A DNA stretch of 64,000 bases from a phage: assembly GCA_023551395.1 (NCBI GenBank), contig GCA_023551395.1_3945.1; one strand, given 5' to 3'. The notes under the pieces were generated by a model. It did no database searches. It saw nothing but the letters and a program-made list of their open reading frames with translations, and was not told the origin of the DNA. Positions within the stretch are counted from its first letter, which is position 1, and every line of letters begins with the position of its first letter. The translations under genes and the position numbers were made by a program. Shown here in pieces: positions 1 through 25,714 of the stretch.

Positions 1-28
1 AAAAAAACACGGTCTGGCAATGTATTAA

Positions 29-105
29 GGTTAGGAAGCACATAAGGTATGTGCGGTCGCCTGTTAAGCGAATGGCACAGGGTTCGAATCCCTGACTAAC
101 CGCCA
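29..105 (+). tRNA. tRNA-Asn (anticodon GTT)
   Basis: Cloverleaf read by hand: T-arm CAGGG-TTCGAAT-CCCTG, anticodon loop CTGTTAA, 6/7 acceptor pairs, encoded CCA. Confidence 0.7.
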
Positions 106-113
106 AATTAAAT

Positions 114-201
114 GTGTCGTTATCCCGTAGATGGTAGCGGTGGGGACTGTAAATCCCTTGTCATTGAGACTCGGTAGGTTCGACTCCTACACGGCACACC
201 A
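114..201 (+). tRNA. tRNA-Tyr (anticodon GTA), long variable arm
   Basis: Acceptor GTGTCGT/ACGGCAC, anticodon stem GGGGA/TCCCT with loop CTGTAAA, ~15-nt variable arm, T-arm GTAGG-TTCGACT-CCTAC, CCA encoded. Confidence 0.75.
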
Positions 202-207
202 AATAAA

Positions 208-285
208 GGTTATGTAGTTTAATCTGGTTAAAATACTCCCCTGTCACGGGAGATGATGAGGGTTCAAATCCCTTCGTAACCGCCA
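208..285 (+). tRNA. tRNA-Asp (anticodon GTC)
   Basis: Acceptor GGTTATG/CGTAACC, anticodon stem CTCCC/GGGAG loop CTGTCAC, T-loop TTCAAAT, CCA encoded. Confidence 0.8.
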
Positions 286-744
286 AATTATAATAAGTAT
301 TTCAAAATGATGTTTTGAGAGGGCTATTTAGCCCCTCCCTTAAAGAGTTCTTACGAGTATTCTTTAAAGGAGCAGAAGACCAAATTCAGCAAATATGTAT
401 GATATTTTCAAGCCAATTTAATTTTGAAAAAATTTAAAACTTGGTCTGGCTCAACAAATTTACAGAAGACCGTTTACAGCAAAAACTTAAACAATCTATT
501 TCTCCGGTAAAGAAAAGGCGAAGGTTCGATTCCTTCACTCGGCAGATGTCGAGTTGGTGTAATGGTAGCACTTAAGATGATAAACAACGGTCTGGTAATT
601 ATCTTTGTAGATAAGTTATTAAGCTTACCTGTGAGTATGCGACCACAAAGGGTGAAAGGGTAAATTCTAGATTTAAACCCAACAAGGCACATCGCTACAG
701 ACCTTAAGCAAGTCTGGGTAGCTTATCTACAAAGATAATTTAAT

Positions 745-820
745 GGAAGTGTAGCAGAATGGTGATGCGGCAGACTTTTAATCTGACAGGCGATGGGTTC
801 GAATCCCTCCACTTCTACCA
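745..820 (+). tRNA. tRNA-Lys (anticodon TTT), atypical weak T-stem
   Basis: Acceptor GGAAGTG/CACTTCT, 3-bp D-stem GCA/TGC, anticodon loop CTTTTAA, T-arm ATGGG-TTCGAAT-CCCTC with only 3 clean pairs, CCA encoded. Confidence 0.6.
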
Positions 821-824
821 AAAT

Positions 825-901
825 GGTTCAGTCGCAGATAAGGTAATGCAAGGGTCTCATAAGCCCTATGAATGTGGGTTCGATTCCCATCTGAACCTCC
901 A
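825..901 (+). tRNA. tRNA-Met (anticodon CAT; could be elongator, initiator or lysidine-Ile)
   Basis: Acceptor GGTTCAG/CTGAACC, anticodon stem AGGGT/GCCCT loop CTCATAA, T-loop TTCGATT, CCA encoded. Confidence 0.7.
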
Positions 902-902
902 A

Positions 903-978
903 GCTGGTATAGTTAAGAAGGTTATAACACTCCCCTGATAAGGGAACATCGGTGGTTCGATTCCACCTACCAGTACCA
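903..978 (+). tRNA. tRNA-Ile (anticodon GAT)
   Basis: Acceptor GCTGGTA/TACCAGT, anticodon loop CTGATAA, T-arm GGTGG-TTCGATT-CCACC, CCA encoded. Confidence 0.75.
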
Positions 979-993
979 ATTTCAATAAAGTTG

Positions 994-1022
994 TTGACAT
1001 TGAGATGTGACCACTTTATAGT
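994..1022 (+). promoter_or_regulatory. sigma70-like promoter (TTGACA, 17-bp spacer, TATAGT) inside the tRNA array
   Basis: Near-consensus -35 at 994-999 and -10 at 1017-1022 with a 17-bp spacer; followed by ~200 nt of non-tRNA leader before tRNA-Arg. Confidence 0.5.
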
Positions 1023-1226
1023 AACCTTAGTTTTCGTTGCGTAGCGTCTATTTTGCAAATTTAAAATAAATGCAAACGACAATGTTTTTCTGGCAGTAGC
1101 TTGATAGGCTAAACACCAGTGAGGTCTTCCAATCCCTCATCAAAGAATTTGGCGTACTCGCCCACGGTATGATTAATAAGGTGGGCATCTTTAAGGGCTT
1201 TCTAAGAGAGTCTTTAAAGATTAATG

Positions 1227-1302
1227 CACCCTTAGTTCAATTGGATAGAGCAACGGTCTTCTAAATCGTTAGTTACAGGTTCGAATCCTGTAGGGTGTGC
1301 CA
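1227..1302 (+). tRNA. tRNA-Arg (anticodon TCT)
   Basis: Acceptor GCACCCT/AGGGTGT, D-arm GTTC-AATTGGATA-GAGC, anticodon stem ACGGT/ATCGT loop CTTCTAA, T-arm ACAGG-TTCGAAT-CCTGT, CCA encoded. Confidence 0.8.
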
Positions 1303-1444
1303 AATAGTTAGCAGATTACTTATACGACCTAAGCGGGTCTTCCTGTAGGGAGGTGGTCTGTATCTCATGTTTTCCAGAACATGTAAATAATCTGAGAAGG
1401 GGCTTTACAGTGTTGAGATAATACGGTAAGCTTCGAATTATAGT

Positions 1445-1527
1445 ATGGGACGATGTTAAGACTCTAAGGCATGAGCAACGGCCTCCAAAACCGTTTCAAA
1501 GGGGTTCAACTCCTCCGTCCCATGCCA
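1445..1527 (+). tRNA. tRNA-Trp-like (anticodon CCA) with enlarged D-region
   Basis: Perfect acceptor ATGGGAC/GTCCCAT, anticodon loop CTCCAAA as in bacterial tRNA-Trp, G discriminator, T-loop TTCAACT; 26 nt between acceptor and anticodon stem instead of ~19. Confidence 0.5.
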
Positions 1528-1540
1528 AAGTCTTATTAGG

Positions 1541-1628
1541 GGTAGGTAGCGGCTAATGGCAGCCAAACAGTCTTGAAAACTGTTGCCACTGTAGAGATAC
1601 GGTGAGGGTTCGACTCCTTTACTTACCG
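1541..1628 (+). tRNA. tRNA-Ser (anticodon TGA), long variable arm
   Basis: Acceptor GGTAGGT/ACTTACC, D-stem GGCT/AGCC, anticodon stem ACAGT/ACTGT loop CTTGAAA, ~20-nt variable arm, T-loop TTCGACT. Confidence 0.65.
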
Positions 1629-1786
1629 CCTAATAAGATTTAAAGCCAAGCTTCATTCGGATGTTGCTTTGGTATCCCTCGTGTATTGTCGTACACGCAC
1701 AGTAAAGCACCTAGTAGGTGTCACGGAGAAGAGATAATATCAAGCTCTCCAAAGGTTCTAGTCACCGGATTAAACAAGACTATGCA

Positions 1787-1809
1787 AAGACCAAATTAGG
1801 TCTTTTTAG
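1787..1809 (+). terminator. intrinsic terminator-like hairpin within tRNA array
   Basis: Stem AAGACC/GGTCTT with loop AAATTA followed by TTTTT. Confidence 0.45.
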
Positions 1810-1886
1810 AGGGCTTCTAAGGTTATTACAGCTTGTTGTGGAACCTTGTTGCTTAGGTTCTTAGAAGTTCTCTAAAAAGATTTAAT

Positions 1887-1965
1887 GGGAGATTGACGGC
1901 AACTTGGTAGACCTATCTCGCTTAGAACGAGATGCTTGAGGGTTCGAATCCCTTGTCTCCTACCA
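1887..1965 (+). tRNA. tRNA with anticodon TAG (Leu by anticodon) but short variable arm
   Basis: Acceptor GGGAGAT/GTCTCCT, perfect anticodon stem TCTCG/CGAGA with loop CTTAGAA, 5-nt variable loop, T-arm GAGGG-TTCGAAT-CCCTT, A discriminator, CCA encoded. Confidence 0.6.
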
Positions 1966-1972
1966 AATTAAT

Positions 1973-2048
1973 GCAGGTGTAGCAAAATGGTTATGCGGCT
2001 GACTCTTAATCAGTAAGACGATGGGTTCAATTCCCTCCACCTGTACCA
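1973..2048 (+). tRNA. tRNA-Lys (anticodon CTT), paralogue of 745-820
   Basis: Acceptor GCAGGTG/CACCTGT, D-stem GCA/TGC, anticodon stem GCTGA/TCAGT loop CTCTTAA, same atypical T-arm ATGGG-TTCAATT-CCCTC, CCA encoded. Confidence 0.6.
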
Positions 2049-2054
2049 AACAAT

Positions 2055-2129
2055 GGGGTCATAGTTTATATGGTTAAAATTCGAGTTTTGCAAACTTGGG
2101 AACTGAGTTCAATTCTCAGTGACTCCACC
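2055..2129 (+). tRNA. tRNA-Ala (anticodon TGC)
   Basis: Acceptor GGGGTCA/TGACTCC giving the G3:U70 alanine identity pair, anticodon loop TTTGCAA, T-arm CTGAG-TTCAATT-CTCAG, CCA encoded. Confidence 0.8.
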
Positions 2130-2136
2130 AATTAGT

Positions 2137-2211
2137 GCATCCATAGTTTAAACGGGAAAATTACAGTCTTCCAAACTGAGGTTGAGGGTTCGATTCCCTC
2201 TGGATGCTCCA
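2137..2211 (+). tRNA. tRNA-Gly (anticodon TCC)
   Basis: Perfect acceptor GCATCCA/TGGATGC, anticodon loop CTTCCAA, T-arm GAGGG-TTCGATT-CCCTC, CCA encoded. Confidence 0.75.
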
Positions 2212-2218
2212 AATTAAT

Positions 2219-2294
2219 GCTCCTATCGTATAATTGGTTATTACGGTTGCCTTGTAAGCAACTTATCAGGGTTCGAGTCCTTGTGGGAGCACCA
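2219..2294 (+). tRNA. tRNA-Thr (anticodon TGT)
   Basis: Acceptor GCTCCTA/TGGGAGC, perfect anticodon stem GTTGC/GCAAC loop CTTGTAA, T-loop TTCGAGT, CCA encoded. Confidence 0.8.
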
Positions 2295-2390
2295 ATTCAG
2301 AGGTCAAGTGAAAGACCGCTTTGAGTCAACTGAAGACCGTAACAAATTCCACGGAGTTGAGTTAGCGGCACAACTCCAGACCTCTTTCAT

Positions 2391-2465
2391 ACTCGCTTAG
2401 TTTATATGGTAAAACATCACCCTTACAAGATGAAGAAAAAGGTTCAAGTCCTTTAGTGAGTACCA
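2391..2465 (+). tRNA. tRNA-Val (anticodon TAC), A1 start
   Basis: Acceptor ACTCGCT/AGTGAGT, D-stem GTTT/AAAC, anticodon loop CTTACAA with one C-A mismatch in stem, T-arm AAAGG-TTCAAGT-CCTTT, CCA encoded. Confidence 0.6.
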
Positions 2466-2466
2466 T

Positions 2467-2544
2467 GTTCCAGTATCCCAATTGGCAGAGGATGCAAGCT
2501 CAAACCTTGTACTAGTGACGGTTCGAATCCGTCTTGGAACACCA
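2467..2544 (+). tRNA. tRNA with anticodon CAA (Leu by anticodon) but short variable arm
   Basis: Acceptor GTTCCAG/TTGGAAC, anticodon stem GCAAG/CTTGT loop CTCAAAC, 6-nt variable loop, T-arm GACGG-TTCGAAT-CCGTC, A discriminator, CCA encoded. Confidence 0.6.
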
Positions 2545-2549
2545 ATTTT

Positions 2550-2625
2550 GCAGGATTAGTTCAAATGGATAGAGCAACAGTCTACGAAGCTGTTAATAGG
2601 GGTTCGAATCCCTTATCCTGCGCCA
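2550..2625 (+). tRNA. tRNA-Arg (anticodon ACG)
   Basis: Perfect acceptor GCAGGAT/ATCCTGC, D-arm GTTC-AAATGGATA-GAGC, anticodon stem ACAGT/GCTGT loop CTACGAA, T-loop TTCGAAT, CCA encoded. Confidence 0.8.
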
Positions 2626-2643
2626 GATAAGCAAGAGGAATTT

Positions 2644-2886
2644 ATGCAAACATTAATCGTCGTTGAACATGAAAATCCCAATAGTATTGAGTTTGTAAGG
2701 GTTCCCACTATAGATACCCACATTTTCTTGAAAGTCGGATGGGAATGCGACCCAATAAAAGTAGAAAGATTTATTGGTCATTGCTTTGGTGGAAGACAAC
2801 TTAAAAGCGTCAATTTTGAGACAATGTTACCAGAAAGCTCAGAAACAAATAATAATGCTTACCTCCTTACGAGGGTTAGACAATGA
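2644..2886 (+). CDS. hypothetical small protein inside tRNA array
   Basis: 80-aa ORF with GAGGA ribosome-binding site upstream of ATG; stop overlaps start of next ORF (ATGA). Confidence 0.4.
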   Translation: MQTLIVVEHENPNSIEFVRVPTIDTHIFLKVGWECDPIKVERFIGHCFGGRQLKSVNFETMLPESSETNNNAYLLTRVRQ

Positions 2887-3440
2887 GATACTTAAAATAT
2901 GTTTCATGGATTTTCTTAGCTTTGTTAGAACCATTTGCAGCAACCCTAGCAGTCATCTTAGCACCTTTCGTAGTTCCATTCTACAGTGAGAAGAAAGGAC
3001 ATCTACCTTTTGGATTCAGATGGATGGAGACCTATGACAACCCGATTGATGGTGATGAAGGCCACGTTAAAAGATGGGCTAAGATTAGAAAGATTGGTAA
3101 GCTGGGTGTCTACATGCAGAGAGTTGGATGGCTCTGGAGAAACAAAGCTTATAACTTCTCTTACCATGTATTAGGAAGAGATGTAAAAGATGTTACTAAG
3201 TGGAAAGGTAATATCAACGTAAGTTCTGACCCTGAAGATAATCAGACTGGTTATCTCCTAATGTGGAACAGTAATGCTTGGGGATTATTCGCTTTTATCC
3301 CATCAATTAAAGTCTTTGGTAAACAGTTTTACTGGAGAATTTATATTGGATGGAAACTAAAAAGTGTTGTCCCAGAAGAAAGAGCATTCTCAAGGGAAAG
3401 AGTTATGTTGGCATTCTTTATTCATCCACTGAGAAAGTAA
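2883..3440 (+). CDS. hypothetical membrane protein (Trp-rich) inside tRNA array
   Basis: 185-aa ORF with hydrophobic N-terminal segment; translationally coupled to upstream ORF; no recognisable catalytic motif. Confidence 0.5.
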   Translation: MRYLKYVSWIFLALLEPFAATLAVILAPFVVPFYSEKKGHLPFGFRWMETYDNPIDGDEGHVKRWAKIRKIGKLGVYMQRVGWLWRNKAYNFSYHVLGRDVKDVTKWKGNINVSSDPEDNQTGYLLMWNSNAWGLFAFIPSIKVFGKQFYWRIYIGWKLKSVVPEERAFSRERVMLAFFIHPLRK

Positions 3441-3448
3441 AGATTTAA

Positions 3449-3524
3449 AGGGGATTAGTTTACAAGGTTAAAACCTCGGTCTTTGAAATCGAAGAAGTTG
3501 GTTCAATTCCAACATCCCCCGCCA
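3449..3524 (+). tRNA. tRNA-Gln (anticodon TTG)
   Basis: Acceptor AGGGGAT/ATCCCCC with 1:72 mismatch, D-stem GTTT/AAAC, anticodon stem TCGGT/ATCGA loop CTTTGAA, T-arm GTTGG-TTCAATT-CCAAC, CCA encoded. Confidence 0.7.
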
Positions 3525-3526
3525 AT

Positions 3527-3605
3527 GCTCCATTACTCCAATTGGCAGAGAGGCCAGACTTAAAATCTGTGTTATGTATCGGTTCGAATCCGATATGGAG
3601 TACCA
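3527..3605 (+). tRNA. tRNA with anticodon TAA (Leu by anticodon) but short variable arm
   Basis: Acceptor GCTCCAT/ATGGAGT, anticodon stem CAGA/TCTG loop CTTAAAA, 7-nt variable loop, perfect T-arm ATCGG-TTCGAAT-CCGAT, A discriminator, CCA encoded. Confidence 0.6.
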
Positions 3606-3610
3606 AATTT

Positions 3611-3685
3611 AGCGGTATAGCATAACTGGCAATGCAACAGTCTCTGAAGCTGTCCTATTAAGGTTCAAATCCTTATGCCGCTGCC
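3611..3685 (+). tRNA. tRNA-Gln (anticodon CTG)
   Basis: Acceptor AGCGGTA/TGCCGCT, D-stem GCAT/ATGC, anticodon stem ACAGT/GCTGT loop CTCTGAA, perfect T-arm TAAGG-TTCAAAT-CCTTA, CCA encoded. Confidence 0.65.
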
Positions 3686-3717
3686 ACTTCTAAGGGTTCT
3701 TACGAGAGTCCTTAAAT

Positions 3718-3793
3718 GTGGCCTTATCATAAATGGTAATGACCCATGCTGTGAACATGGTCTATACGGGTTCAAATCCCGTAGGTCACCCCA
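3718..3793 (+). tRNA. tRNA-His (anticodon GTG)
   Basis: Acceptor GTGGCCT/AGGTCAC, perfect D-stem TCAT/ATGA, perfect anticodon stem CCATG/CATGG loop CTGTGAA, C discriminator, CCA encoded. Confidence 0.8.
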
Positions 3794-3798
3794 ATTTA

Positions 3799-3875
3799 TA
3801 GTCCAAGTAGCTTATATGGTTAAAGCGCGTGTCTGAAAAACATGAGAAGAGGGTTCAAATCCCACTGGACTACCA
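3799..3875 (+). tRNA. tRNA-Phe (anticodon GAA), irregular acceptor/D junction
   Basis: Anticodon stem CGTGT/ACATG loop CTGAAAA, D-stem GCTT/AAGC, T-loop TTCAAAT; exact 5' end ambiguous between 3799 and 3801. Confidence 0.6.
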
Positions 3876-3891
3876 ATTTCAAAGGTGCTTA

Positions 3892-4626
3892 ATGAAAGAG
3901 ATGACAGAACAAGGTAAGGAGATTTTTAATCTCTTAAAAACCGGTAAAGGGTTCTCTAACCCACTTATTACTGGTGCAGCAGTTCTCGGTGGAACCGTAG
4001 CTGCTTCTACATCACTTGTAAGCTCTATTAGTTCTGTAACAGACCCTACAATGAAGGAGAAACTTGTTGCTGCTGGACTTACAACAGTCCTTCTAAACAG
4101 CTTTACAACAAGCCTTACAAGCACTACAGCAACTACTAAGACCCTAACAGACTACGGTCAAAAGTCTATTGATGAGTTTTCATCACGTATGCAGGTAGCA
4201 AAGGGATACTCCAATGTTATGGGTGCAGCAGGAGAACAAGTTGGTTGTACACCATTCAGTGGTATTATGGGTGTTGCTACAGAGTATGGTCAAAAAGCTA
4301 TTAACATGATTAACAGTACACTAGATAGTGTTAATGGTGTATTAAGTGACTTACAAGATGCTATTGATAAGGGTCTTGATACTGTTTCTGATTTAGCTAA
4401 CCAAGCTGTCAGTAAGATTAATGAAGGTATCTCAAAGATTACCGCTTATGCAGATGAAGTTGTGCAGATGATTGAAGAAGAAGCTTCCCTTATTGCAGAG
4501 TACCTTAAAACGAATATCAATGGGTTCTTAGCAGGTATCTTACCAGACTGGTTTGATGATGCTTGTAAAACTGGTGTGATTGACACTATTGCAACACCAG
4601 AAATGAAGAACGCATTACAGAAATAA
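3892..4626 (+). CDS. hypothetical Ser/Thr/Ala-rich protein
   Basis: ORF-track frame 3829-4626, start moved to internal ATG at 3892 (AAAGG ribosome-binding site) because upstream part overlaps tRNA-Phe. Confidence 0.5.
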   Translation: MKEMTEQGKEIFNLLKTGKGFSNPLITGAAVLGGTVAASTSLVSSISSVTDPTMKEKLVAAGLTTVLLNSFTTSLTSTTATTKTLTDYGQKSIDEFSSRMQVAKGYSNVMGAAGEQVGCTPFSGIMGVATEYGQKAINMINSTLDSVNGVLSDLQDAIDKGLDTVSDLANQAVSKINEGISKITAYADEVVQMIEEEASLIAEYLKTNINGFLAGILPDWFDDACKTGVIDTIATPEMKNALQK

Positions 4627-4627
4627 T

Positions 4628-4720
4628 GGAAGATTAACCCTAAAAGGTAAGGGAGCAGTTTGCTAAACTGCCAGTAGCTGAGAAATCGGTGTACCAGTTC
4701 AAGTCTGGTATCTTCCTCCA
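4628..4720 (+). tRNA. tRNA-Ser (anticodon GCT), long variable arm
   Basis: Perfect acceptor GGAAGAT/ATCTTCC, perfect anticodon stem GCAGT/ACTGC loop TTGCTAA, ~21-nt variable arm, T-arm ACCAG-TTCAAGT-CTGGT, CCA encoded. Confidence 0.8.
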
Positions 4721-4724
4721 ATTT

Positions 4725-4799
4725 GAATCCGTGACAGAAATGGCTATGTGCCTGTCTGCAAAACAGGTTTATAAGGGTTCGAGTCCCTTCGGATTCTCC
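4725..4799 (+). tRNA. tRNA-Cys (anticodon GCA)
   Basis: Perfect acceptor GAATCCG/CGGATTC, perfect anticodon stem CCTGT/ACAGG loop CTGCAAA, T-arm AAGGG-TTCGAGT-CCCTT, CCA encoded. Confidence 0.75.
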
Positions 4800-4837
4800 A
4801 AGTTATTTTACTCTCTCTCAATTAAAATAATAATAAT

Positions 4838-24526: not shown

Positions 24527-25714
24527 ATGGCAGTAGGTGAAATTCAAATTAGTGCCTTGCCTCAAGCAGCCTTACCAATTGACCTTAGTGATATCTTCCA
24601 TCTTAAACAAGGTATTGAGGATAAGAGATGCACTCTTGAGCAATTACTTGCTCCACACTCAAGCCTAAGAAATAACCCTCATGGTGTTACTAAAACACAA
24701 ATTGGTTTAGATAACGTTATCAATGCTCTTCAGTTAGTTGCTGCAAATAACTTATCAGACGTTACTAATGTAGCTCAGGCAAGAGCAAATCTACAGATTA
24801 TGTCTTCAGAAGAGGTTAATAATCTTGTTCAACAGCATATTCAGGACAAGAGCAACCCACATAATACAACTAAGGCACAGGTAGGATTGAGTAATGTTCA
24901 GAACTGGACAACATCTAACCTTTATAACGAAGATGCAGATAAGTATGCTACAGCAAGAGCAGTAAATAACTTGTACAAGGCTGTTCAGGCTTCTTATCCA
25001 GTAGGTACTATCCATCTTTCCATGAACTCTGCAAACCCTTCTACGTATTTAATTTGTGGAGGAACTTGGGAGTTAGTTTCAAAAGGTAGAGCATTGGTTG
25101 GTTATGACTCTGACACAAGACCAGCAGGTTCTGTATTTGGTGCTTCAACTGTCACTTTGTCAGTTAATAACATGCCTCAACACTCTCACTCTGTGTCTCT
25201 TAGTGGTGGTGGTCATACTCATAATGCAACGGTGTCAATTTCAGCTTTTGACTATGGGACTAAGACTACCAACTCTTTTGACTATGGAACTAAGACCACT
25301 AACACAACTGGTAACCACAACCATGTTGGTAGTGGGTCAACAAGTTCTGCTGGTGCTCATAACCACAGATTGACCTATGAATCAGGTGGTGGTTTATCGG
25401 AAAGACCTGCAATGGTTTGGTCTTCAAGGAATGACCAATCATGGTACTCAGCAGATGCTGTCTGTGAAGTAGCTGGTGCACACACTCACTCTTTCAGTGT
25501 TACCACTAACACAACTGGTAACCACAACCATACGGTTGGTATTGGTGCTCATAGCCACACAGTTGGTATTGGTTCGCATACACATAATGGTACTGTAACA
25601 GTTTCTTCTTCTGAACATACGCATAGCGGGAACACTAATAGTGTTGGTGGTGGACAAGCTTTCAATATTGAGCAGCCATCCTTCGTACTGTATGTATGGC
25701 AGAGAACGGCTTAA
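24527..25714 (+). CDS. tail fibre protein (short) with His-rich HxH C-terminal domain
   Basis: N-terminal tail-fibre-type repeats (NPHGVTKTQIGLDNV, NPHNTTKAQVGLSNV); C-terminal repeated NHNH/HTHS/HSHT motifs; C-terminus homologous to that of 25761-28139. Confidence 0.75.
   Translation: MAVGEIQISALPQAALPIDLSDIFHLKQGIEDKRCTLEQLLAPHSSLRNNPHGVTKTQIGLDNVINALQLVAANNLSDVTNVAQARANLQIMSSEEVNNLVQQHIQDKSNPHNTTKAQVGLSNVQNWTTSNLYNEDADKYATARAVNNLYKAVQASYPVGTIHLSMNSANPSTYLICGGTWELVSKGRALVGYDSDTRPAGSVFGASTVTLSVNNMPQHSHSVSLSGGGHTHNATVSISAFDYGTKTTNSFDYGTKTTNTTGNHNHVGSGSTSSAGAHNHRLTYESGGGLSERPAMVWSSRNDQSWYSADAVCEVAGAHTHSFSVTTNTTGNHNHTVGIGAHSHTVGIGSHTHNGTVTVSSSEHTHSGNTNSVGGGQAFNIEQPSFVLYVWQRTA
25247..25306. repeat. 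30-bp in-frame tandem duplication inside tail-fibre gene
   Basis: Two adjacent 30-nt units, ~26/30 identical, encoding FDYGTKTTNS / FDYGTKTTNT. Confidence 0.8.

Follow-up and report, generated by a model that had tools for sequence, protein, structure and literature searches.

Two paralogous lysine tRNA genes with a bulged T-stem in a Felix O1-type phage

The lysine tRNA genes and their array

The window, which here means the whole stretch of 64,000 nucleotides that was analyzed (contig GCA_023551395.1_3945.1), belongs to a Felix O1-type phage, a myovirus of the genus Felixounavirus. Near its start lies an array of tRNA genes that includes two genes for lysine tRNAs, one with the anticodon UUU and one with CUU. 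The features that concern us are the following.

29-4800, plus strand: tRNA array with both lysine genes; 23 tRNAs called by ARAGORN and Rfam
29-105, plus strand: tRNA-Asn(GUU), the phage version of a main PARIS AriB target, with G39 where the host has U39
745-820, plus strand: tRNA-Lys(UUU) gene, called by ARAGORN, with an encoded CCA
745-751 and 810-816, plus strand: acceptor stem of tRNA-Lys(UUU)
754-768, plus strand: D-arm of tRNA-Lys(UUU)
770-786, plus strand: anticodon arm of tRNA-Lys(UUU), with the anticodon TTT at 777-779
787-791, plus strand: variable loop of tRNA-Lys(UUU)
817, plus strand: discriminator A of tRNA-Lys(UUU)
994-1022, plus strand: sigma-70-type promoter-like site between the lysine genes (TTGACA, 17-nt spacer, TATAGT; 11 of 12 consensus matches)
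1973-2048, plus strand: tRNA-Lys(CUU) gene, called by ARAGORN, with an encoded CCA and the same layout as the UUU gene
2005-2007, plus strand: anticodon CTT of tRNA-Lys(CUU)
2045, plus strand: discriminator A of tRNA-Lys(CUU)
2219-2294, plus strand: tRNA-Thr(UGU), the phage version of a main PARIS AriB target, with G39 where the host has U39

Both lysine tRNAs had been proposed from the sequence, and ARAGORN and the Rfam model RF00005 agree with that assignment. The Rfam scores are 54.4 bits for Lys(UUU) and 56.9 bits for Lys(CUU) (gathering score 29), and each alignment is a full-length cloverleaf covering model positions 1-71. The acceptor stem has seven of seven pairs in both. The anticodon loops CTTTTAA (UUU copy) and CTCTTAA (CUU copy) read as originally described, each with seven nucleotides, U33 and a purine at position 37, and the three Watson-Crick D-stem pairs GCA/TGC are indeed common to the two genes. 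Position 13:22 of the D-stem is non-Watson-Crick in both (G13.A22 in the UUU copy, A13.A22 in the CUU copy); Infernal gives it no negative-score flag in either tRNA, and the standard pair is also absent in 10 of 33 aligned relatives. The UUU copy has in addition a G27.A43 mismatch in its anticodon stem. The T-loop consensus (G53 T54 T55 C56 A58 C61) is present in both, as UUCGAAU in the UUU copy and UUCAAUU in the CUU copy, and U8, A14, G18, G19 and U33, the other universal tRNA positions, are likewise intact. The identity elements of the E. coli lysyl-tRNA synthetase (LysRS) are U35 and U36, together with U34 or C34, and the discriminator A73. U35, U36 and A73 are present in both phage tRNAs, and from these established rules we infer that LysRS would charge them.

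The two genes had also been called paralogues, and their similarity is well above chance. They are identical at 62 of 76 positions (81.6%), which places them first among the 253 pairs that can be formed from the 23 tRNAs of the array (mean 60.3%, sd 5.1%), and some of the differences between them, at 2:71, 4:69 and 29:41, are compensatory. Presumably one gene was duplicated inside the phage lineage and a U34/C34 change of anticodon followed.

Short ORFs and non-tRNA RNA-like segments lie between the tRNAs of the array. An Rfam search of 280-760 found no described Y RNA family, only one partial tRNA match. The promoter-like site lies between the lysine genes, and therefore Lys(CUU) may not depend on the transcript start of Lys(UUU); the site is only a lead, because the region as a whole has no more sites of this kind than shuffled sequence would be expected to give. 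Both lysine genes would be expressed as part of the array and processed to CCA-ending tRNAs.

The genes themselves are already known. They are annotated in Felix O1 and hundreds of its relatives, and the CUU isoacceptor was discussed in 2025 for the Shigella phage Sf14 (genus Mooglevirus). In Felix O1 both are annotated in the same array order (Felix01t007 and Felix01t010): Lys(UUU) is 100% identical to an annotated tRNA-Lys (NC_005282, 24856-24931), and the gene equivalent in position to Lys(CUU) is Felix01t010, annotated as tRNA-Lys. The Sf14 Lys(UUU) is 98.7% identical. The tRNA-Lys(UUU) of E. coli (lysT family) is more distant, 72% identical to the UUU copy and 67% to the CUU copy. It has in common with the phage tRNAs U33, A37, A73, the CCA end and a 5-nt variable loop with G46 and C48, and its T-loop UUCGAAU is that of the UUU copy, but it has a 4-pair D-stem, an 8-nt D-loop with UU at positions 16-17 and an uninterrupted T-stem, GCAGG/CCUGC.

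A bulged base in the T-stem

The T-arms of the two tRNAs are arranged as follows.

792-809, plus strand: T-arm of tRNA-Lys(UUU); G792-A793 pair with T808-C809, and GGG 795-797 with CCC 805-807
794, plus strand: bulged T of tRNA-Lys(UUU)
798-804, plus strand: T-loop of tRNA-Lys(UUU), TTCGAAT
2020-2037, plus strand: T-arm of tRNA-Lys(CUU); G2020-A2021 pair with T2036-C2037, and GGG 2023-2025 with CCC 2033-2035
2022, plus strand: bulged T of tRNA-Lys(CUU)
2026-2032, plus strand: T-loop of tRNA-Lys(CUU), TTCAATT

The original prediction gave the T-arm as ATGGG, a loop of TTCGAAT or TTCAATT, and CCCTC, with only three Watson-Crick pairs. The shared sequence is as stated, but the count of pairs comes from a register error. 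That register requires the mismatches A49.C65 and U50.U64 and a 6-nt variable loop, and in the relatives 24 of 33 and 32 of 33 of the corresponding cells are unpaired. Infernal aligns both tRNAs as G49:C65, A50:U64, an inserted U, and G51-53 with C61-63, that is, with five standard T-stem pairs, one bulged U and a 5-nt variable loop, and it raises no non-canonical flag in the T-stem of Lys(UUU). The stem is thus interrupted, with the bulged U between 50:64 and 51:63. No other tRNA among the 23 of the window has such a bulge, and the remaining 21 T-stems are regular; the apparent irregularity of the T-stem of the array's tRNA-Phe is a parsing artefact.

The predicted energies favor the same register less clearly. 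ViennaRNA chooses it for the Lys(CUU) tRNA and for both isolated T-arms, and the minimum free energy (MFE) structure of the whole Lys(CUU) tRNA is a cloverleaf with the bulged T-stem. The Lys(UUU) cloverleaf is 0.5 kcal/mol above the MFE structure, which folds the T-region differently. Thermodynamics is not decisive as an arbiter here, because the bulge register of Lys(UUU) is better than a three-pair stem by only 0.6 kcal/mol and the folding z-scores of both tRNAs are not significant. The predicted stabilities, calculated for unmodified transcripts, are -15.5 kcal/mol for Lys(UUU) and -18.4 kcal/mol for Lys(CUU), versus -28.6 kcal/mol for the E. coli tRNA-Lys. Low predicted stability is general among the tRNAs of this phage, and the tRNAs of Sf14 are also less stable than those of its host (PMC12482277).

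The relatives are more informative. A test on independent phage tRNA-Lys genes used those in which G51 is preceded by one extra base and position 64 is not T: 24 of them are irregular in the standard register, and 21 of these 24 form every pair once the bulge register is applied (binomial p about 2e-15). In an alignment of 33 sequences, position 50:64 is AU in 16, GC in 10 and UA in seven, and 49:65 is GC in 31, AU in one and CG in one. The percentage paired in this alignment, 100% in the bulge register, is circular, because the sequences were picked for pairing in that register, and the independent support consists of the variety of pair types and the test on the 24 genes.

Another fold with a bulged T-stem has been described. 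The (8/4) tRNA-Sec and the selC* tRNA-Cys, some of which are encoded in phage tRNA clusters, also have a T-stem whose 5' strand contains one bulged nucleotide (PMC5389517), and there the bulge is dispensable for function (Mukai et al., PMC5389517). However, those tRNAs have an acceptor stem of eight pairs, a T-stem of four and the bulge at 51a, whereas the lysine tRNAs have a canonical 7/5 configuration, which fits 33 of 33 aligned relatives, and a bulge between 50 and 51. Neither the 8- or 9-pair acceptor stem nor the shortened T-stem of the (8/4) and (9/3) types is found in the window's lysine tRNAs, and an 8/4 fold is ruled out because T8 faces a C (C809 or C2037) and no eighth acceptor pair can form. 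The reading that fits the T-arm best is a stem of five pairs in which a single pyrimidine bulges out after the second, a conserved architectural variant and not a product of decay.

Distribution of the bulged T-arm

Matches to the Lys(UUU) gene occur in 255 phage records, and 194 of these records are at least 99% identical to it; the identical or nearly identical sequence is found in more than 240 records from phages of Escherichia, Salmonella, Shigella and Citrobacter. Across hundreds of genomes the T-arm is invariant except for the bulged base, a pyrimidine (U or C) in every case even between distinct groups of phages; the position of the bulge is fixed and the pairs that flank it covary. 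In Suspvirus orthologues the acceptor stem has undergone more changes of the compensatory kind. A natural Felixounavirus exists in which both lysine slots are occupied by CUU-type bodies and the UUU gene is missing, and therefore the UUU copy is dispensable in at least that phage.

A blastn search of 5,426 complete E. coli genomes gave no match to the Lys(CUU) gene, which argues against a host origin or homologue. A pattern for the bulged lysine T-arm matches at least 120 viral contigs and has six matches in 185,579 cellular species genomes. All of the cellular loci but one are dense arrays of seven to 23 tRNAs, like those of phages, and some of the neighboring ORFs match PHROG families; at the exception (locus L132) ARAGORN calls no tRNA. 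The six matches were therefore rejected as a bacterial source of the motif.

The bulge is also enriched in one isotype. Among viral loci taken without any constraint on the T-arm, three of 121 lysine tRNAs and one of 633 other tRNAs are bulged (Fisher p = 0.014), an enrichment that comes from small numbers and related sequences. The same motif appears sporadically in phage tRNAs for Leu, Glu, His, Arg and other amino acids. In summary, the bulged T-arm recurs, with covariation, among lysine tRNAs of phages that are not related to one another, and cellular genomes hardly ever have it. Neither the bulge nor its distribution in phages is mentioned in the Felix O1 annotation or in the Sf14 paper (PMC12482277), which compared anticodon loops and not stems or D-loops.

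Lysine decoding and tRNA-cleaving nucleases

Lysine accounts for 7.4% of the codons in the 51 long ORFs of the window (the genome is 39% GC); AAG makes up 43.6% of the lysine codons and AAA 56%. The host has no tRNA-Lys(CUU), and AAG is used more in the related phage Sf14, although AAG usage in Sf14 does not track its tRNA adaptation index (PMC12482277). Once charged, Lys(UUU) would decode AAA and AAG, and Lys(CUU) would read AAG by direct Watson-Crick pairing, a reader that E. coli, Salmonella and Shigella do not have. Since the phage genes are rich in lysine and AAG is a much more frequent codon in them than in the host, the pair would mainly raise and secure lysine decoding capacity during infection. 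We consider it probable that the two genes encode functional lysine-accepting elongator tRNAs that serve mainly in lysine decoding and in which the bulged T-stem is a conserved variant. On laboratory strains, most of the tRNAs of the Felixounavirus Bas63 are not essential (PMC11482910), which fits an accessory or conditional role. A second benefit, as insurance if the host tRNA-Lys is depleted or cleaved, is possible but unproven.

That last idea could be extended, so that both tRNAs would mainly replace host tRNA-Lys cleaved by defence nucleases, with the altered stems, the short D-loop and the bulge making them poor substrates. It is an already established idea that phage tRNAs can replace cleaved host tRNAs, and the background given with the original prediction agrees with the literature: tRNA-Lys(UUU) is a prime target of PrrC and of the PARIS nuclease AriB, and phage T5's tRNA-Lys is not cleaved and rescues infection. 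Against PrrC170, T1 and T7 can be rescued with tRNA-Lys genes taken from phages of several genera, but only poorly with extra E. coli tRNA-Lys. AriB recognizes U36AAUC/A41, the slash marking the cut (PMC12409363); cleavage is abolished by U39A, inhibited by A41C and impaired by U16C, and AriB also needs contacts beyond the anticodon stem-loop that are still unmapped. The cues reported for PrrC are the sequence, modifications and base-pairing of the anticodon stem-loop (PMC1950546). For neither enzyme has the T-arm been reported as a determinant.

How the phage tRNAs compare with the host at these determinants, a comparison that the original prediction had called for, gives a mixed answer. Lys(CUU) has UAAUC/A, identical to E. 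coli at six of six positions of the AriB site (36-41), whereas Lys(UUU) has UAAUC/U and differs only at position 41, which adjoins the scissile bond, with a U unlike the A41C change that was studied. Both keep U39, C40 and U16, so that neither has a T5-type substitution at position 39. Both also have a 7-nt D-loop, one base shorter than in the host, with a single U before GG and no U17. The anticodon loop of Lys(UUU), CUUUUAA, is that of the host, and three of its five anticodon-stem pairs differ, including G27.A43; the loop of Lys(CUU) differs only as that of another isoacceptor, and its C34 removes the modified wobble U beside which PrrC cuts. Counting Thr(UGU) and Asn(GUU) with their G39, each of the three main AriB targets has a variant form in this phage.

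The conceptual model for such a role is the T5 tRNA-Lys(UUU), which neutralizes PARIS and whose gene likewise lies in a virulent coliphage's large array of tRNA genes (PMC11464382, PMC12409363). It is 62-64% identical to the lysine tRNAs of the window and has a host-like CUUUUAA loop, but it has A39 and C41 (UAAACC) and C16, a 4-pair D-stem where the window's tRNAs have three Watson-Crick pairs, and a regular T-stem (ACAGG/CCUGU), on account of which it was set aside as a relative that shares the bulge. No Lys(CUU) gene is present in the stretch of T5 that was examined. Because the sole proven resistant case, the T5 tRNA, has this regular T-stem, the bulge is not needed for resistance. In addition, Lys(CUU) cannot decode AAA, the more frequent lysine codon, and nuclease escape was disfavored, from anticodon loops only, for the nearly identical tRNA set of Sf14 (PMC12482277). 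The virus-enriched distribution of the bulge would agree with a defence role, but on balance we regard replacement of cleaved host tRNA as possible yet rather unlikely to be the main role. In the literature we found no experiment in which a Felixounavirus tRNA-Lys was tried against PrrC or PARIS. In the parts of the Felix O1 record that were examined for a T4-style tRNA repair system, a polynucleotide kinase is annotated and an RNA ligase was not found.

Two other explanations concern the stems alone. The original prediction allowed that the divergent stems simply reflect relaxed constraint, in which case the genes would be decaying or marginally functional copies that accumulate damage. The low folding stability with its non-significant z-scores, the G27.A43 and 13:22 irregularities, the tRNAscan isotype models that score the Lys-CTT of Sf14 highest as Cys (PMC12482277) and the non-essential tRNAs of Bas63 might all be taken that way. 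However, low stability is common to the tRNAs of this phage, the universal positions are intact, and the changes that separate the paralogues, like those that separate orthologues, compensate one another in pairs. We reject relaxed constraint as the source of the divergent stems, because the stems show covariation and hundreds of genomes have one and the same T-arm but for the bulged base; decay is very improbable.

The bulge could also tune how the translation or maturation machinery handles the phage tRNA-Lys, with no role in defence. Its fixed position, the covarying flanks and the constant pyrimidine across distinct phage groups indicate selection for the architecture itself. The affinity of EF-Tu for a tRNA depends on the T-stem pairs 49-51:63-65, among which the bulge lies, and the enrichment in lysine tRNAs would suit such a function. 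The sporadic occurrence of the motif in other phage tRNAs and the few, related sequences behind the enrichment speak against it, and we think this explanation improbable. It is a similarly long shot that the bulge is a selected, virus-specific hallmark of a widespread class of phage lysine tRNAs, UUU and CUU alike, and enables them to evade some host factor whose recognition of tRNA-Lys involves the T-arm or elbow. That factor may be AriB, through its distal contacts, or another nuclease directed at tRNA-Lys, and LysRS, EF-Tu and the ribosome would still be able to use the tRNAs.

In conclusion, what is new at this locus is a structural detail of genes that were already annotated. The T-stem has five pairs and one bulged base and is not a degenerate three-pair stem, and in lysine tRNAs this form belongs to viruses far more than to cells. 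Should the bulge influence how tRNA-targeting defence nucleases recognize these tRNAs, the arms race between phages and their hosts over tRNA would gain a determinant beyond the anticodon arm.

The T-stem of the two lysine tRNAs

Two lysine tRNA genes, both already annotated in the Felix O1 RefSeq record (Felix01t007 and Felix01t010), were called by ARAGORN exactly where the original prediction had placed them.

745-820 (+): tRNA-Lys(TTT), referred to here as Lys(UUU); 54.4 bits
1973-2048 (+): tRNA-Lys(CTT), referred to here as Lys(CUU); 56.9 bits

These scores (Rfam tRNA model, threshold 29) are mid-range within the array. Both genes encode CCA and have discriminator A, and the predicted anticodon loops, GCA/TGC D-stem (with 13:22 non-Watson-Crick) and common T-arm string are all present. 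The paralogy is also solid: the two are identical at 62 of 76 bases (81.6%), and none of the other 253 pairings that the 23 window tRNAs allow, this one included in the count, is as close (mean 60.3%, sd 5.1%). The stems differ by compensatory changes, Lys(UUU) having G2:C71, A4:U69 and A29:U41 and Lys(CUU) having C2:G71, G4:C69 and U29:A41. Relaxed constraint, which had been suggested as an alternative explanation of the unusual stems, is rejected because of these compensatory changes and because the genes are nearly identical in over 240 records that span four host genera.

A related Felixounavirus (IMGVR_UViG_3300045988_004180; scanned loci L013 7722-7797 and L015 256-331) has a lysine chimera in the slot of the UUU gene. 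Its acceptor stem and the start of its D-arm are UUU-type, and the body is CUU-type with anticodon CUU. The ordinary CUU gene is kept as well, and so this virus is without any Lys(UUU) gene. The chimera appears to have arisen by gene conversion from one paralogue to the other.

The claim that only three T-stem pairs are Watson-Crick turned out to be a mis-reading. Folding both tRNAs with a covariance model (Infernal) gives a T-stem that is not degenerate: G49:C65, A50:U64, one inserted U and GGG:CCC in both genes, with a 5-nt variable loop and no non-canonical flags, as opposed to the 6-nt variable loop of the standard register. In ViennaRNA, each isolated T-arm and the complete CUU tRNA have the bulged hairpin in their minimum free energy (MFE) structure. 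In the UUU tRNA, a cloverleaf with the bulge (-15.0 kcal/mol) is only slightly more stable than one with a 3-pair T-stem (-14.4 kcal/mol); this gap is slight and therefore energy alone is weak evidence for the bulge register.

We consider the comparative sequence data to be decisive for the bulge register. Viral contigs were scanned for tRNA-Lys(UUU) genes in which the stretch from the anticodon loop to G51 is one base longer, with the requirement that N64 was not T, which left out the query motif. This gave 80 unique sequences; in 56 of them the stem is regular and the variable loop is 6 nt long. The other 24 are irregular in the standard register, and in 21 of them both positions pair in the bulge register (combinations G-G/C-C, G-U/A-C, C-G/C-G and A-G/C-U), against a chance expectation of about 14% (binomial p about 2e-15, with independence overstated since the sequences are related). 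An alignment of 33 bulge-type tRNA-Lys sequences has AU 16, GC 10 and UA 7 at pair 50:64 and GC 31, AU 1 and CG 1 at pair 49:65; it was selected for this register, and so its evidence is the diversity of pair types only, not the percentage paired. In the standard register, the corresponding cells are unpaired in 24/33 and 32/33 sequences. The bulged base is U or C and is nearly the sole variable T-arm position within the Felixounaviruses.

Distribution of the bulged T-stem

Within the window, the bulged T-stem is limited to the two lysine tRNAs out of 23. Its T-arm motif GAYGGGTTCRANTCCCTCCA is present in many unrelated viral contigs, and 107 of 133 tRNAs with it are lysine tRNAs, in a sample dominated by two phage groups. 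A lysine-specific pattern (CTYTTAA, 10 N, GAYGGGTTCRANTCCCTC) has at least 120 matches in the viral collection and only six places among 185,579 bacterial and archaeal species (one genome per species). All six come from metagenome-assembled genomes; five lie in dense arrays of 7-23 tRNAs each, and ARAGORN called no tRNA at the sixth (L132). These cellular loci are probably phage DNA too, since some of the neighboring ORFs match PHROG families.

In viral loci sampled by the GACTTTTAATC anticodon arm only, 5/119 tRNA-Lys(UUU) genes are bulged; when all tRNAs of these loci are counted, the figures are 3/121 for lysine versus 1/633 for the others (Fisher p = 0.014). Several other phages have bulged UUU and CUU copies adjacent to each other. 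Our limited literature search found no description of a bulged T-stem of this kind or of its restriction to viruses, and the sole related precedent found is a bulge at 51a in 8/4 tRNAs (PMC5389517).

Among a group of viral contigs of 80-186 kb with bulged-T-stem tRNA-Lys(UUU), three (loci L044, L059 and L114) contain a near-identical tRNA body with the anticodon loop TTAAAAA, to which ARAGORN assigns the very unusual anticodon AAA (Phe).

The tRNA array and a YrlA-like element

The first 5 kb of the window matched 406 phage records, with a query coverage of 80% or more in 221 and an identity of 95-98% in the best matches. The matching phages are Felix O1-like myoviruses (genus Felixounavirus, genomes of ~87 kb) of Escherichia, Salmonella and Shigella. 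All 23 tRNA genes called by ARAGORN (29-4800) are on the + strand, and 22 exceed the Rfam gathering score.

HNH homing-endonuclease genes are variably present between the window and Felix O1 (825-901 against 25030-25515 of the Felix O1 region, L365). For example, an HNH ORF separates Lys(UUU) from Ile in Felix O1, where the window has tRNA-Met(CAT); other Felix O1 HNH genes lie in the Ile-Leu interval and behind Gly. The 247 nt that separate tRNA-Ile from tRNA-Arg contain a near-consensus sigma-70 promoter-like site (994-1022, +; TTGACA, 17-nt spacer, TATAGT, 11/12 matches) and sub-threshold tmRNA-model hits. An unannotated tRNA-like sequence (1447-1521, +) combines the anticodon-type loop CUCCAAA, whose anticodon is CCA (Trp), with a GGGG-TTCAACT-CCTC T-arm and an unusually long D region. 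It received no ARAGORN call, and its sole model match is to tRNA-Sec, where its 23 bits fall below the gathering score of 47 (E = 0.017 for a search of 246 nt). The sequence may represent an aberrant tRNA-Trp or some other RNA resembling a tRNA.

A conserved RNA-like element at about 467-596 (+) inside the array has the layout described for bacterial YrlA-type Y RNAs (PMC4201824).

Parts of the YrlA-like element in its MFE fold
467-474 with 586-593 (+): closing stem, AGACCGTT with AACGGTCT
499-515 (+): hairpin, TTTCT-CCGGTAA-AGAAA
520-536 (+): T-arm, GAAGG-TTCGATT-CCTTC
537-554 (+): acceptor-like hairpin, ACTCGGC/GTCGAGT
557-571 (+): D-arm, GTGT-AATGGTA-GCAC

The four parts enclosed by the closing stem stand in circularly permuted tRNA order, and the MFE fold has exactly this layout. 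The acceptor-like hairpin has two different self-complementary replacements in Suspvirus and Mooglevirus-type relatives; across these Ounavirinae, three pairs have both sides changed and 98.6% of cells are paired. Neither ARAGORN nor Rfam called the element, Rfam giving just a partial tRNA hit (22 bits). In Felix O1, ORF42, which lies upstream of the array, carries the annotation 'RNA-binding protein' (Pfam DUF2828 and DUF7788); its homologue in Felixounavirus Bas63 was termed Ro60-like, with the presence of Y RNAs guessed as possible (PMC11482910, preprint).

The same stem motif occurs at 374-450 (+), where CAGAAGACCAA (374-384) and TTGGTCTGG (441-449) can form a stem that encloses a short AT-rich insert. 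At 1-20 (+), ACGGTCTGG (9-17) resembles the 3' strand of one more element of this type; its 5' part would lie before the start of the window. The 5' segment CAAATTTACAGAAGACCGTTTACAGCAA occurs a second time in related loci, in Felix O1 between tRNA-Met and tRNA-Asn.

Nuclease determinants and lysine decoding

Nuclease-resistant phage tRNAs are an established concept, and the original prediction was that the divergent lysine tRNAs could be such substitutes. AriB, the PARIS nuclease, cuts at C40|A41 inside U36AAUC|A41 (PMC12409363). Cleavage of E. coli tRNA-Lys (reference sequence from PMC11464382) is abolished with U39A, inhibited with A41C and impaired with U16C. At this site, Lys(CUU) has exactly the host sequence, UAAUC|A, and Lys(UUU) has UAAUC|U; U16 is present in both, in a 7-nt D-loop without U17. 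PrrC recognizes features of the anticodon stem-loop, namely anticodon sequence, modifications and base pairing (PMC1950546); there, the Lys(UUU) loop is that of the host and Lys(CUU) has C34. Hence, resistance is disfavored for Lys(CUU) at the AriB site and for Lys(UUU) at the PrrC loop, both being host-identical there, and it may hold through position 41 of Lys(UUU) and the D-loop, where the phage tRNAs differ. Further, unmapped AriB contacts exist, since T5 tRNA-Lys, which neutralizes PARIS, is still not cleaved when the E. coli site is put back. T5 tRNA-Lys has a regular T-stem, unlike the two lysine tRNAs of the window. The phage counterparts of the other two main AriB targets, Thr(UGU) (2219-2294, +) and Asn(GUU) (29-105, +), read UAAGCA and UAAGCG with G39 in each, whereas the E. 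coli Asn and Thr targets read UAAUCC and UAAUCA with U39. Rescue of phages from a PrrC homologue has been reported for phage-encoded tRNA-Lys genes from several genera; we found no literature data on Felixounaviruses with PARIS or PrrC.

Lysine decoding fits the pair better. Lysine accounts for 7.4% of the 16,573 codons in 51 long ORFs of the window, and 43.6% of these lysine codons are AAG, despite a GC content of 39%. E. coli uses about three AAA per AAG and tRNA-Lys(UUU) is its only lysine tRNA. A blastn search of 5,426 complete E. coli genomes with the Lys(CUU) gene gave no match. The study on Shigella phage Sf14 (PMC12482277) has already discussed Lys-CTT together with AAG usage, and also that the phage tRNAs have low stability; the host of Sf14 is without a Lys-CTT gene, and median AAG RSCU is 0.778 in the phage versus 0.462 in the host. 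The Bas63 tRNAs are mostly non-essential in four laboratory strains (PMC11482910), which fits a conditional function. Given lysine-rich ORFs, a high AAG share, a host without Lys-CTT and no E. coli match, the best-supported role of the two genes, as judged from sequence, would be to supply lysine decoding, including a Watson-Crick reader of AAG; replacement of depleted or cleaved host tRNA-Lys would be a plausible added bonus.
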